Assembly: GCA_963815215.1 (NCBI GenBank)
Contig: CAWFFU010000003.1
Span: 768,001 to 832,000, forward strand
DNA length: 64,000 nt
Direction of reading: 5' to 3'
Origin: an uncultured Trueperaceae bacterium
GTDB lineage: Bacteria; Deinococcota; Deinococci; Deinococcales; Trueperaceae
Positions within the stretch are counted from its first letter, which is position 1; the number at the start of each line of letters is the position of its first letter. Of this stretch, positions 34,169-59,807 are shown piece by piece. The notes under the pieces are model-generated. The model saw only the letters and a program-made list of their open reading frames with translations. It was not told where the DNA came from and searched no databases. A program made the position numbers and the translations under genes.

Positions 34169-35842
<1,674 letters not shown>

Positions 35843-45792: not shown

Positions 45793-50379
<4,587 letters not shown>

Positions 50380-50410: not shown

Positions 50411-53785
<3,375 letters not shown>

Positions 53786-54215
53786 CTTCACCCCTTCGCT
53801 CGAAGCCGTGTCGCCCGGAGCGTGAGCGCGGCCTGGGCCGCGCGTGCCGTTCAAGCCGAAGCGCGGCAGAGCAACCCCAGGGAGGGCCGCGCGCGGTCTC
53901 CCTGAGCGTCTTGCCGTGCACAAACGTTCGACGTCAAGTACGAATCCCCTGATTCAAAATACCGTGTCCCAACGGAAGGGCATGTCGGGCGACCCGGTCG
54001 CGGTGCTCCGCGCACTCGCCGCCTGAGCGAACCCTCGGGTTCTCCCGGCTTGCCGACGCCGACCCACCTCGCTGTGACGTGCCAACCTGACCTTCGTACC
54101 GACTCCGACCGATCTCCCCGCCAGTGGCTCGCAAACCACGAACTCTCATACTACTGCTTCGTAGCTCCCAGTCACGTAGCCTGCCACTCCTGAGCGTCAC
54201 TCCAACACGCTCGCA

Positions 54216-56655: not shown

Positions 56656-57213
56656 TCACGCCCTGACGACCTGAGAGTAGTCGAGCTCGACCGGGGTCTC
56701 CCGGCCGAAGATCGAGACGAGTACCTTCACCTTGCCGCGCTCGGGGTTGACCTCCGAGACGACACCCGTGAAATCGGCGAAGGGTCCGGCCGTGACCTGG
56801 ACCATATCGCCGACGTTGAAGGTGATCTTGACCTTGGGCGCCTCCCGCGAACCGGTGATGCCCAGCGTGCCGAGCATGCGCTGCTCCTCGTCCGGGGAGA
56901 GCGGCACAGCGCGTGTGGCAGTGCCCACGAAGCCGGTCACGCCCGGCGTGTAGCGCACCACTTCCCACGCCTCGTTGGGCTCGTCGGGATTGTCGCCGAG
57001 GTCCATCTGCACGAAGATATAGCCGGGAAAGAGCTTGCGCTTGACGACTTCCTTCTTGCCGCCGCCCGCGTGCTCCACCGTCTCCTCGGTGGGCACGACC
57101 ACCTGGTAGATGCAGTCCGCGATGCCGAGCGACTTCGCCCGGCTCATCACGTTCTCCTTCACCTTCTCCTCGTGGCCCACATAGGTGTGGACGGCGTACC
57201 ACTCGATGCTCAT
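56656..57213 (-). CDS. nusG: Transcription termination/antitermination factor NusG
   Basis: [29 protein letters not shown] domain [16 protein letters not shown]. Confidence 0.98.
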
Positions 57214-57285
57214 TCGGGTCCAAACCTCGTCTCGTGAGCCCCCGTGCCGGGACCCAGGTCGCGGCGGCGGGGTGGGGCGTCGACC

Positions 57286-57468
57286 TCAGGTGAGCAGGCC
57301 AATGAGGTTCCCCAACGTGGCGTCCGCGATGAGCAGGAACAGGGCCGTGATCAGCACGAACAACAGCGTCGCTTCGGTCGCCTGCAACACTTCCTTGCGG
57401 GTGGGCCAGGTGACGCGACCGAGCTCGGCGCGTGAGTTGCGCAGGTAGTTGACGAATCCCTTGAACAT
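57286..57468 (-). CDS. secE: Preprotein translocase subunit SecE
   Basis: ELGRVTWPTRKE followed by one TM helix. Confidence 0.92.
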   Translation of the reverse strand: MFKGFVNYLRNSRAELGRVTWPTRKEVLQATEATLLFVLITALFLLIADATLGNLIGLLT

Positions 57469-57478
57469 GCGTGCCGGC

Positions 57479-57643
57479 CTAGACCTTCACCTCACGGTGC
57501 GCGGTGTGCTTGCGGTCCCAGGGGCAGTACTTGCGGAGCTCGAGCTTGCCCTGGCTGTTGCGCCGGTTCTTGTGCGTCGTGTAGTTACGGCGCTTGCACT
57601 CGGTGCACTCGAGAAGCAGCTTGATGCGGACGTCACTGGCCAT
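57479..57643 (-). CDS. rpmG: 50S ribosomal protein L33 (54 aa, absent from the ORF track)
   Basis: Hand translation [61 protein letters not shown]. Confidence 0.95.
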
Positions 57644-57732
57644 GGTGGTCTCCCAATCGAAAGAGCATACCAGAGTCGGGGCCCCGGCATCGTAGCGCGG
57701 CGGGGTCCCGACCCCGGGAAGGGCAGATGAGG

Positions 57733-58950
57733 TTACTTCGTCACGGCCGTCACGACACCCGCACCGACCGTCCGACCCCCCTCACGAATCGCAAACCGCA
57801 ACCCCTCCTCCATCGCAATCGGCTTGATCAACTCCACCCCAAGCTCCACATTATCCCCAGGCATCACCATCTCCACACCCTCCGGCAACGACACCACCCC
57901 CGTCACATCCGTCGTCCGAAAGTAAAACTGCGGGCGATACCCAGAAAAAAACGCGCTATGCCGCCCCCCCTCCTCCTTCTTCAACACATACACCGACCCA
58001 CGAAACACCGTATGCGGCGTAATCGACCCAGGCTTCGCCAACACCTGACCCCGCTCGATCTCCTCACGCCCCACACCCCGCAACAAAACCCCCACATTAT
58101 CCCCAGCCATCCCCGAACCCAACGTCTTCCGATGCATCTCCACACCCGTCACAACCGTCTTCCGCGTATCCCCCAACCCAACAATCTCAACCTCATCCCC
58201 CGTCTTCACCTCACCACGCTCAATACGACCCGTCGCCACCGTCCCACGACCCGTAATCGTAAACACATCCTCCACCGGCAACAAAAACGGCTTCTCCACA
58301 TCCCTCACCGGCGTCGGAATATACCCATCCACCGCATCCAACAACTCCCAAATCCGATCCACCCACTCATTCTCACCACGCTGCATCGACGGATTCCCAT
58401 GCAACGCCTCCAACGCCCTCAACGCAGACCCCGCCACCACCGGAATCTCATCCCCCGGAAACTCATACAACGACAACAGCTCCCGAACCTCCATCTCCAC
58501 AAGCTCCAACAACTCCGCATCATCCACCATGTCCACCTTGTTCAAAAACACCACAATATTCGGCACACCCACCTGACGCGCCAACACAATATGCTCACGC
58601 GTCTGCGGCATCGGCCCATCCGCAGCCGACACCACCAACACCGCACCATCCATCTGCGCAGCCCCCGTAATCATATTCTTCACATAATCCGCATGCCCCG
58701 GACAATCCACATGCGAATAATGCCGCGCCACCGTCTGATACTCCACATGCGCCGTATTAATCGTAATCCCACGCGCCTTCTCCTCCGGCGCCTTATCAAT
58801 CTGATCGTAATCCTGAATCTCCACCGACGGATCCGCCGCCGCAGCCGCAAACGTAATCGCAGCCGTCAACGTCGTCTTCCCATGATCCACATGCCCAATC
58901 GTCCCAACATTCACATGCGGCTTCGTACGCTCAAACACACCCTTAGCCAT
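57733..58950 (-). CDS. tuf: Elongation factor Tu (tufB-type locus)
   Basis: [37 protein letters not shown]. Extreme G/T third-position bias. Confidence 0.99.
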
Positions 58951-59028
58951 GATCCTGTCCTTTCCCAGCCGAAACGAGCCGGCCTGCTGGCCGCAGGCAC
59001 GACTCGGCTCGACCTCGGGGCTGCAATT

Positions 59029-59103
<75 letters not shown>

Positions 59104-59175
59104 CCGCCTTCTACCCCGTCTTGCGCCCGGCCCAGCACGCACCGTGCTTGACGCGCCTGCGCGCGGGACCGTGCT

Positions 59176-59251
<76 letters not shown>

Positions 59252-59309
59252 GAACCGCCCGGATCCGGGCGCGCCCTCTCGAGCGGCGTGGCCAAGACGG
59301 CCGCGCTCC

Positions 59310-59395
59310 TGGTGGGCAGGGCTGGATTCGAACCAGCGTAGGCATAAGCCAACGGATTTACAGTCCGTCCCCTTTAACCACTCGGGCACCTACCC
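59310..59395 (-). tRNA. tRNA-Tyr(GTA)
   Basis: Anticodon loop CTGTAAA, long variable arm, ends ACCA. Confidence 0.96.
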
Positions 59396-59422
59396 GCACC
59401 GTGGACGTCGCGCCCCGCGCCG

Positions 59423-59498
59423 TGGAGCCACCCATCGGAATCGAACCGACAACCTTCCGATTACAAGTCGGATGCTCTACCGGTTGAGCTAGGGTGGC
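59423..59498 (-). tRNA. tRNA-Thr(TGT)
   Basis: Anticodon loop CTTGTAA, GTTCGATTC T-arm, encoded CCA. Confidence 0.96.
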
Positions 59499-59574
59499 GC
59501 GCCGCAGTTCACACGGCCTCACCGACGCTCGCCGCTCCCGGCGGGGCCGGGCCCGGGCTGACGTCCGAATTCCT

Positions 59575-59604
59575 AAGTTAGCATGCGCGATTTTCCCGTG
59601 TCAA
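59575..59604 (-). promoter_or_regulatory. tRNA-tuf operon promoter TTGACA-18-TAACTT (extended TG)
   Basis: Consensus -35 at 59604-59599 and -10 at 59580-59575. Confidence 0.7.
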
Positions 59605-59807
59605 CGGAATGAATCGCCGTTCGTGACGTGGCTAACGGCGCGCTGGCGACAGCGGCGCGAACGGACGCGTCCGGTCGCCCGCGCACGGCCGCCGGAAGGG
59701 CGTCCAGGCGCCGTCCCACCCCCCCGTCCCGGCCGCCCGTACCGTCGCGCCAGAGCACCTTGTAGCGAAGCGGCGGATGCTACGCTACGCGTGATGGAGG
59801 CAATCGC

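Follow-up and report, generated by a model that had tools for sequence, protein, structure and literature searches.

We report that the gene for elongation factor EF-Tu (tuf) of an uncultured Trueperaceae bacterium (Deinococcota; Deinococcales) is spelled almost entirely with codons that end in G or T. The gene lies in a stretch of 64,000 nucleotides (GenBank assembly GCA_963815215.1, contig CAWFFU010000003.1, positions 768,001 to 832,000), which as a whole is called the window. The recoding of tuf is an inherited, gene-specific trait of this Trueperaceae genus and is no artefact. From the direction in which third bases have changed, we infer that natural selection acts on how much G relative to C the coding strand or its transcript contains, and we put the chances of this reading at about even. 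The spelling keeps C minimal and G maximal on the sense strand and hence in the mRNA: C has turned into G where the code allows it and into T in two-fold pyrimidine boxes, in Ile and from Leu CTG to TTG, and A-ending codons have turned into G-ending ones. Both recA copies share the trait and an ABC ATPase gene is acquiring it now. A few genes are mirror-coded, with G purged and C loaded, the clearest being a UDP-sulfoquinovose-synthase-like (sqdB-like) gene, and in our reading gene conversion only keeps the tuf copies identical. New here are the code shared by recA and the ABC ATPase gene, the mirror-coded genes, a shift in amino acids and a polarised test pointing to fixation bias. No published account of a C-purged tuf or recA was found in the full-text literature, subscription journals being outside its coverage.

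Spelling and inheritance of tuf

The gene and the tract that it shares with a second copy have these window coordinates:

57733..58950, minus strand: tuf (EF-Tu) coding sequence (CDS), 405 sense codons plus TAA, G/T-ending spelling
57731..58954: tract 100% identical to the second tuf copy (blastn, 1224/1224)

The product matches NCBIfam family TIGR00485 (EF-Tu) with 728 bits, the cut-off being 522. Third positions of the 405 codons are G in 270 cases, T in 124, C in 11 and A in none, so that 394 codons have G or T as their last base. Of the 27 Leu codons 24 are TTG, two CTT and one CTG, and Gly is GGG 29 times, GGT 15 times and never GGC. The C-ending codons are numbers 48, 137, 140, 298, 332, 339, 343, 375, 395, 399 and 402, three of the 11 falling within the last 11 codons. 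Each codon count that the first-pass annotation had made from the letters of the window is thereby reproduced. In the pyrimidine boxes T/(T+C) is 0.94, with TTT 12:0, CAT 12:0 and GAT 22:1 over the C-ending partner, and in the four-fold boxes T occurs 44 times and A never. Sense-strand GC skew of tuf is +0.51. Plus-strand skew ranges from -0.32 to -0.62 in 200-base windows inside 57800-58999 and -0.41 in the window 57700-57899, which straddles the tuf 3' end, and it stays inside +/-0.14 in every 200-base window fully outside the CDS. This bears out the earlier claim that the bias is strand-asymmetric and restricted to the gene.

The bias also stands out genome-wide. The source genome (G000) measures 3.32 Mb in 14 contigs, cited here by C numbers, with 70% GC; near-identical overlaps of 1-11 kb between contig ends (C1/C9, C1/C5, C11/C12, C14/C6, C6/C9, C10/C14) are redundant ends. 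Open reading frames (ORFs) were called heuristically, as the longest ones ranked by GC at third minus GC at second codon positions (GC3-GC2), and this procedure mis-called the antisense or a shifted frame at two strongly skewed genes, pseI-like and sqdB-like. Over the 2703 ORFs called in this way, the share of codons ending in G or T (G/T wobble) is 0.463 +/- 0.060. Both tuf copies rank as the top two, and only about eight genes of the genome are extreme. Highly expressed genes of the window served as controls, among them the following:

34169-35821, minus strand: GroEL-like control, G/T wobble 0.43
45793-50379, minus strand: RpoC-like control, G/T wobble 0.45
50411-53923, minus strand: RpoB-like control, G/T wobble 0.46

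Across the GroEL-, RpoB-, RpoC-, L1-, L10-, L11-, L7/L12- and NusG-like ORFs of the window, which we take to be these genes from their N-termini and not from a family search, G/T wobble is 0.42-0.55 and the share of C at third positions (C3) is 0.40-0.55. Thus, expression level alone is no explanation, as had been argued from the window. As a further background we used 80 tuf genes of other phyla, an arbitrary sample of the matches listed with no Deinococcota among them. Their G/T wobble is 0.53 +/- 0.09 with a maximum of 0.76; C3 below 0.10 combined with flanks above 55% GC was found in 0 of these 80, and a few of them, such as two from Gemmatimonadota, show partial G-loading. A pattern with K at every third base (41 positions, at most 3 mismatches; 31 genomes) was tried as a tract finder and left unused, its thousands of matches stemming from G-rich first codon positions and low-complexity repeats.

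The second tuf copy that had been anticipated exists. It is a 1224-bp segment at C3:568988-570211, identical to the first by blastn and made up of the CDS plus 2 and 4 bases; the coding sequences themselves lie at C3:825736-826950 and C3:568993-570207, both on the minus strand. The second copy follows an EF-G-like ORF in a str-type operon, amid normally coded ribosomal-protein ORFs; these names we presume from N-termini. Identity of the copies ends at the CDS borders, and same-genus orthologs are 91-99% identical per 150-bp bin, with no recent sweep of the tract seen in the between-species nucleotide identity profiles. In genome G004 the second copy carries two one-base insertions, and all 14 polarisable differences are on the other copy, so that it is uninformative as a pseudogene test of mutation versus selection.

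The gene had been judged native, and its inheritance agrees. The EF-Tu protein is 81-97% identical to those of relatives of the order, identity drops with taxonomic distance, and the arrangement tRNA-Thr/Tyr/Gly/Thr-tuf is common to relatives with and without the bias. Within the genus, tuf has a G/T wobble of 0.95-0.99 in all four other genomes in which at least 260 codons are assembled; the remaining five of the nine other genus genomes hold tuf only as fragments at contig ends. The order as a whole shows a gradation from 0.26 to 0.99. In intermediate lineages the four-fold boxes are already 74-80% G, and the pyrimidine boxes and Leu follow later, T/(T+C) going from 0.28 to 0.94. The organism is known from salt marsh and soil, and the whole stretch or part of it is present in 20 of the 21 listed public runs (15 studies). 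In the four runs examined, which come from independent metagenome studies, contigs match 560-622 nt of the tuf tract with 0-1 differences, which disposes of the worry that the tract might be a chimeric assembly. These contigs break at the tract borders, as is expected of a two-copy repeat; none of the contigs listed covers the whole stretch, and the one over the 3' border has 28 letters in tuf. Exact tuf pieces also occur in one RNA-library run, which is no proof of transcription, and the four examined runs consist of contigs, without strand, level or transcript ends. A foreign gene and an assembly chimera are both ruled out by identity that tracks taxonomy, the conserved tRNA-tuf synteny and the independent metagenome contigs.

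Other genes with the same or the mirrored code

Scanning every phase of the genome revealed further skewed genes:

C3:872349-873299, plus strand: recA copy 1, core; G/T wobble 0.88-0.89 in the core of both copies
C8:78383-79333, minus strand: recA copy 2, core; same range
C3:748365-749084, minus strand: GlnQ/EhuA-like ABC ATPase gene, single-copy; G/T wobble 0.80
C3:836467-837678, plus strand: sqdB-like mirror gene, single-copy; C/A-coded
C12: pseI-like cluster, mirror-coded; G/T avoided on the sense strand
C11:194706-195884: unnamed mirror gene without an NCBIfam match; skew -0.32

Two recA genes in one bacterium are, to our knowledge, unusual. The two copies are 99.4% identical over 983 bp, and their diverged C-terminal tails are normal and C-rich. 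As whole paralogs they occupy C3:872349-873389 and C8:78257-79333 (loci L033 and L058 in relatives), with different flanks and C-terminal tails, and their first 15 codons differ in G003 and G004. The paralogs show concerted evolution across the genus, and G012 likewise has two recA genes. G/T wobble of recA is 0.83-0.91 in 10 of 10 sequences from eight genus genomes; recA is G/T-coded also in two neighbouring genera, and elsewhere the value is 0.32-0.56. For the ABC ATPase gene a value of 0.80 is confined to G000 and the genome closest to it. Elsewhere in the genus the gene has 0.47-0.69, and the other high-GC genera of the family that were measured have about 0.40-0.45 in four of five cases and 0.57 in G012. 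Since its high wobble is restricted to two genomes, this gene is a young case.

The sqdB-like gene shows the opposite code. Its third positions (404 codons) are C 0.775, A 0.116, G 0.101 and T 0.007, and its C/A wobble is 0.89-0.92 in six of eight genus genomes, G000 included, and 0.69-0.73 in the other two. The gene begins about 4.5 kb past the window end and its reading frame is split into three pieces, interrupted near 836997 and 837578; the frames of relatives are intact, at 411-416 aa or more. The interruptions probably reflect single-base mistakes in the assembly of a C-rich gene, the rival view being a pseudogene. Both extremes meet in an island at C11:171000-200000, where a G-loaded ORF (187603-188418, skew +0.31) lies beside a type I restriction-like ORF and where the unnamed C-loaded ORF is also found. 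No second copy of the ABC, sqdB-like, pse or C11 genes was found in G000.

Direction of change and reach into the proteins

Ancestral third bases were inferred by parsimony where outgroups agree. At four-fold sites with ancestral C, changes to G and to T number 86:20 in tuf, 26:6 in recA and 29:5 in the ABC gene. In the mirror (sqdB-like) gene, G changed to C at 8 four-fold sites, and to A at 10 sites in purine boxes (11 over all sites, 1 of them four-fold). The young ABC gene can be compared with its two flanking genes. In its core in G000, ancestral C was lost at 50 of 90 sites (29 to G, 21 to T) and ancestral G at 1 of 60; in the flanking genes ancestral C was lost at 44 of 233 and ancestral G at 22 of 145. 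By hand calculation, loss of C is thus multiplied by 3.0 and loss of G by 0.11, the single G loss standing against 9.1 expected at the control rate (Poisson P ~0.001). One fixation-bias parameter, S of about 2.8, predicts factors of 3.0 for C and 0.18 for G. The preference of C>G together with the protection of G fits a fixation bias on sense-strand G versus C, and fits neither deamination nor GC-biased conversion. Deamination of single-stranded DNA, which the first-pass annotation had put forward as a candidate, is accordingly disfavoured. C goes to G wherever the box allows and to T where that is the sole synonymous choice, and T and A endings are therefore largely forced by the structure of the code.

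The pressure extends to protein composition. Keto content at codon positions 1 and 2 (Leu, Arg and Ser excluded) follows wobble keto content across orthologs with r of 0.85 in tuf (n=14), 0.95 in recA (n=28) and 0.75 in the sqdB-like gene (n=14), values that relatedness inflates. RecA has 44-45 Val and 10-14 Ile in the genus, and 24-34 Val and 17-30 Ile in other relatives, including high-GC ones. EF-Tu has 52-54 Val in the genus versus 39-46 in relatives whose wobble keto is below 0.7. In the sqdB-like mirror gene the amino acids shift in the opposite direction, from Val to Ile.

Proposed selection on G versus C, Rho as a possible agent, and the alternatives

If the balance of G and C on the coding strand is selected, the leading idea for the selected property is exclusion of Rho, which we put forward tentatively and regard as unlikely on its own. 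A transcript without a stretch of C>G would give Rho no loading place, and recoded genes would still be transcribed to full length when translation falters, be it that EF-Tu is short, that amino acids run out or that damage occurs; a mirror gene would let Rho load along its whole length. In sense-strand windows of 78 nt, C exceeds G in 0 of 1141 windows of tuf and in 962 of 962 of the sqdB-like gene. The recA genes have 18-44 such windows, none before nt 926-931 of 1041-1077, and the ABC gene has 13, none before nt 697 of 786. The genome mean share of these windows is 0.50, and 3 of 2382 ORFs are free of them. The bias is relaxed over the last 90-150 nt of recA and the ABC gene; Rho that loaded within the final 100-150 nt would come too late to truncate the gene, an idea that would fit this relaxation.

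A rho gene is present (TIGR00767, 580.8 bits, cut-off 509, at G000:C3:218373-219602). The match lies within an open frame of 675 aa, the family model having 415 positions, and the sequence suggests a Rho with a long N-terminal extension. Such extensions are known from high-GC bacteria. For E. coli, the excerpted text of Nadiras et al. 2018 (PMC6144790) reports that 28 of 32 regions free of C>G bubbles gave no Rho termination in vitro, that templates with bubbles > 78 bp all terminated, and that the first principal component has %G, %GG and %GGG of the non-template strand among its main loadings. We read these loadings as the G-rich motifs that the paper uses as explanatory variables, with a sign that would be against termination. 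Like those refractory regions, the whole tuf CDS has %C <= %G in every 78-nt window, as do recA and the ABC gene apart from their 3' ends, and rho is present. In E. coli, however, such regions are short and scattered, and the excerpts do not describe them as a synonymous recoding of entire genes, which is what we see here. A wider proposal, which we hold to be rather unlikely, is that synonymous spelling acts as a Rho switch: emergency genes free of C>G (EF-Tu, RecA and the amino-acid-uptake ATPase) would survive uncoupling, the mirror set (sulfolipid and surface-sugar synthesis, a mobile-island gene) would be shut off first, and the tuf version would be independent in several phyla.

Several points weigh against selection on G versus C, or against Rho as its agent. 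The gene set is small and mixed (tuf, recA and one ABC ATPase; as mirrors the sqdB-like gene, the pseI-like cluster and an unnamed island gene), and it leaves out the ribosomal-protein genes, rpoBC and groEL. That A is wholly avoided in the four-fold boxes of tuf (T 44, A 0) does not follow from Rho logic and needs an extra assumption on translation. Relatives of the order have C-rich tuf genes (C3 0.58-0.72), and rho is reported in Thermus and Deinococcus by the control list of the search; thus the trait is no general need. The polarised test is confined to conserved sites with small counts and one young case, and apparent C>G changes may be two steps, C>T and then T>G under GC pressure. Furthermore, the G/T-rich strand is the leading strand, by the sign of GC skew, at eight of nine skewed loci, which are few and not independent, and this polarity hints at a mutational component linked to replication.

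The strongest alternative, strand-specific mutation, is in line with that hint. In it, C and A deaminate on the strand that is most single-stranded (the non-template strand in transcription, the lagging-strand template in replication), R-loop feedback may amplify the process, and GC pressure then turns T into G; we judge it distinctly unlikely. The leading-strand polarity at eight of nine loci includes the mirror genes, although one recA copy has a polarity opposite to replication. Leading-strand genes in general have a G/T wobble of 0.49-0.50 versus 0.43-0.44 on the lagging strand (on C3 beyond 480 kb, 0.498 with n=271 and 0.440 with n=261), the replication origin being inferred from GC skew only. 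The amino-acid shifts are transitions of the same direction, Ile to Val in G/T genes and Val to Ile in the mirror. Francino and Ochman, and Green et al. in 2003, are said to have found in a coding-strand excess of G+T the signature of transcription-associated asymmetry. This asymmetry should cover co-transcribed genes and scale with expression, and here the surroundings of tuf are instructive:

59423-59498, minus strand: tRNA-Thr(TGT), by ARAGORN
59310-59395, minus strand: tRNA-Tyr(GTA), by ARAGORN
59176-59251, minus strand: tRNA-Gly(CCC), by ARAGORN
59029-59103, minus strand: tRNA-Thr(GGT), by ARAGORN
57727..59151, plus strand: antisense ORF of 474 aa without stops (ORF list)
57487-57690, minus strand: L33-like ORF downstream of tuf (ORF list, name presumed from the translation)
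57286-57468, minus strand: SecE-like ORF downstream of tuf (ORF list, name presumed from the translation)
56656-57213, minus strand: NusG-like ORF downstream of tuf, G/T wobble 0.47 (name presumed)

The four tRNA genes upstream (59029..59498) are normal in composition, as the first-pass annotation had stated, and the local GC skew is near zero over the downstream ORFs (56656..57690). A promoter and terminator scan of 57200-59700 gave nothing usable. The antisense ORF has codon boundaries in common with tuf (57733-57727 = 6) and is a by-product and no gene, because reverse-complemented NNK codons begin with A or C and leave no stop in frame. The co-oriented genes adjoining tuf at both loci and those adjoining the ABC gene have normal wobble. 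Thus, with transcription units unmapped, what is expected of transcription-associated asymmetry is not seen: the bias ends at the CDS borders and spares co-oriented neighbours of the same operon, highly expressed ones too. It also spares the ends of recA and the ABC gene. At four-fold sites C goes to G four to six times as often as to T, and loss of G is suppressed about nine-fold, which raised deamination of C does not predict.

Replication-linked precedents have been described. McInerney in 1998 and Lafay in 1999 reportedly found G/T-ending codons on the leading strand and C/A-ending codons on the lagging strand of spirochaetes. The Borrelia-type expectation, in which all genes of a replication strand are biased, does not hold here. 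Excerpts of PMC2671203 treat strand-specific codon usage in spirochaetes and Lawsonia; the alphabets are the same, G/T versus C/A, and the polarity in our genome appears mostly to follow the replication strand, at eight of nine loci that are few and not independent. In those bacteria all genes of a strand are moderately biased, whereas here a small genome-wide effect (0.50 versus 0.44) is accompanied by a handful of genes at 0.8-0.97 with sharp CDS borders.

It is improbable, in our view, that the single strand is selected not to pair with itself, be it to keep mRNA unstructured or as single-stranded DNA for RecA, by the use of G/U-only or C/A-only alphabets whose direction is set by a small prior strand bias. 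This one principle covers both the G/T genes and the mirror C/A genes and accounts for the avoidance of A too. The predicted folding of tuf is -0.280 kcal/mol/nt, compared with -0.363 +/- 0.010 when recoded with genome codon usage; for recA the values are -0.303 and -0.399 +/- 0.019, and for the sqdB-like gene -0.184 and -0.302 +/- 0.018. The skewed code weakens predicted folding by 23-39%, and 60 background genes have -0.407 +/- 0.043 kcal/mol/nt. Palindromes in tuf are about halved (4-mers 55 versus 105, 6-mers 11 versus 29). However, composition alone yields weaker folding, and G/T is only fourth of the six two-letter wobble alphabets in weakening the folding of tuf and recA, C/A, A/G and A/T being better. 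Self-pairing also gives no reason for the unrecoded ribosomal-protein genes or for the relaxation at the 3' end. G-quadruplex motifs, one in tuf and none in recA, are not notably enriched.

Quite improbable is a template strand of C and A that tolerates damage, being poor in G (8-oxoG) and in T (T-containing photodimers, thymine glycol), which would let first-responder genes be transcribed faithfully even when their DNA is damaged. Some bacteria of the family resist radiation, and recA and tuf are plausible first responders. Tolerance would cover the avoidance of both C and A, and a four-fold G:T ratio of about 80:20 that equals the genomic background. Yet the mirror genes have the most damage-prone template possible, and the ABC ATPase does not fit.

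Gene conversion is tied to the original interpretation of tuf, in which the skew followed the homologous tract. As a driver, biased conversion or recombination between duplicates, to which a RecA preference for GT-rich single strands might contribute, is already largely refuted, and we consider it very improbable. In its favour, the tuf and recA pairs are both near-identical and both skewed, and the recA paralogs evolve in concert. Tracy and Kowalczykowski in 1996 reportedly showed that RecA prefers GT-rich DNA in vitro. Nevertheless, single-copy genes carry the bias or its mirror. Besides tuf the recA pair is skewed, but an ordinary wobble of 0.26-0.58 is seen in three further pairs of duplicated coding sequences (89%, 96.8% and 99.9% identical). 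In G012 (0.43), G020 (0.26) and G027 (0.35), relatives with a pair of identical tuf copies, tuf is normal or C-rich. GC-biased conversion acts on base pairs and is blind to C versus G on one strand, so it cannot choose G over C, and C>G dominates at four-fold sites. Conversion therefore explains the identity of the copies and not their spelling. A Crp/Fnr-like regulator occurs twice (C10:264291-265008 and C3:866365-867082), 99.86% identical over 718 bp, with differing N-termini and ordinary codons. Concerted evolution of tufA and tufB by gene conversion in Salmonella and E. coli is treated in excerpts of PMC6053082. The layout is alike, with one tuf after tRNA genes and one after an EF-G-like ORF, identical in the CDS and unrelated outside; unlike that account, the spelling here extends to single-copy genes, and other converted or duplicated pairs lack it. 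Among the candidates of the first-pass annotation, conversion and deamination have thus lost ground, which leaves selection for a G-rich or weakly structured mRNA.

Translational selection, in which G/T-ending codons are best read by a special tRNA pool or modification state, is barely credible, since other highly expressed genes lack the bias, NNT displaces NNC where one G34 tRNA reads both codons (G34 tRNAs are the only kind found in G000 for Phe, His, Asp, Asn, Tyr and Cys), the same tRNA operon precedes unbiased tuf genes, and mirror genes exist. The tRNA set would otherwise suit it: there are C34 tRNA genes for all boxes and, by ARAGORN, two copies each of Ala(CGC), Gly(CCC) and Val(CAC), though overlaps between contig ends may account for some of the duplicates; of the 44 four-fold codons of tuf with a final T, 26 are GGT or CGT. 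The tRNA-Gly(CCC) of the tRNA-tuf operon reads GGG, the most frequent Gly codon in tuf, and it precedes tuf without bias in relatives as well; the E. coli tRNA-Gly at the equivalent position has the anticodon UCC. Classical codon adaptation of tuf and other highly expressed genes was reportedly described by Sharp and Li. As in that model tuf is the most biased gene of the genome, but ribosomal-protein, rpoBC and groEL genes are unaffected, and wobble-read NNT is favoured over cognate NNC.

These results have practical consequences. Because the antisense frame of such genes has no stops, gene finders can mistake it for the gene; screens for horizontal transfer that rely on codons will give false hits on these genes; and assemblies from short reads or unitigs are interrupted at the two-copy tract. 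Many studies treat the synonymous sites of tuf and recA as near-neutral markers or as the model of translational codon adaptation, and here these sites are under a strong, strand-aware and different pressure, which has also replaced some ten residues in each protein (Ile to Val). If the true cause is selection against Rho loading or on another property of the transcript, the whole-CDS absence or saturation of C>G windows would be a simple signature for such genes in any genome, and this genus would have a regulatory layer written in silent sites.

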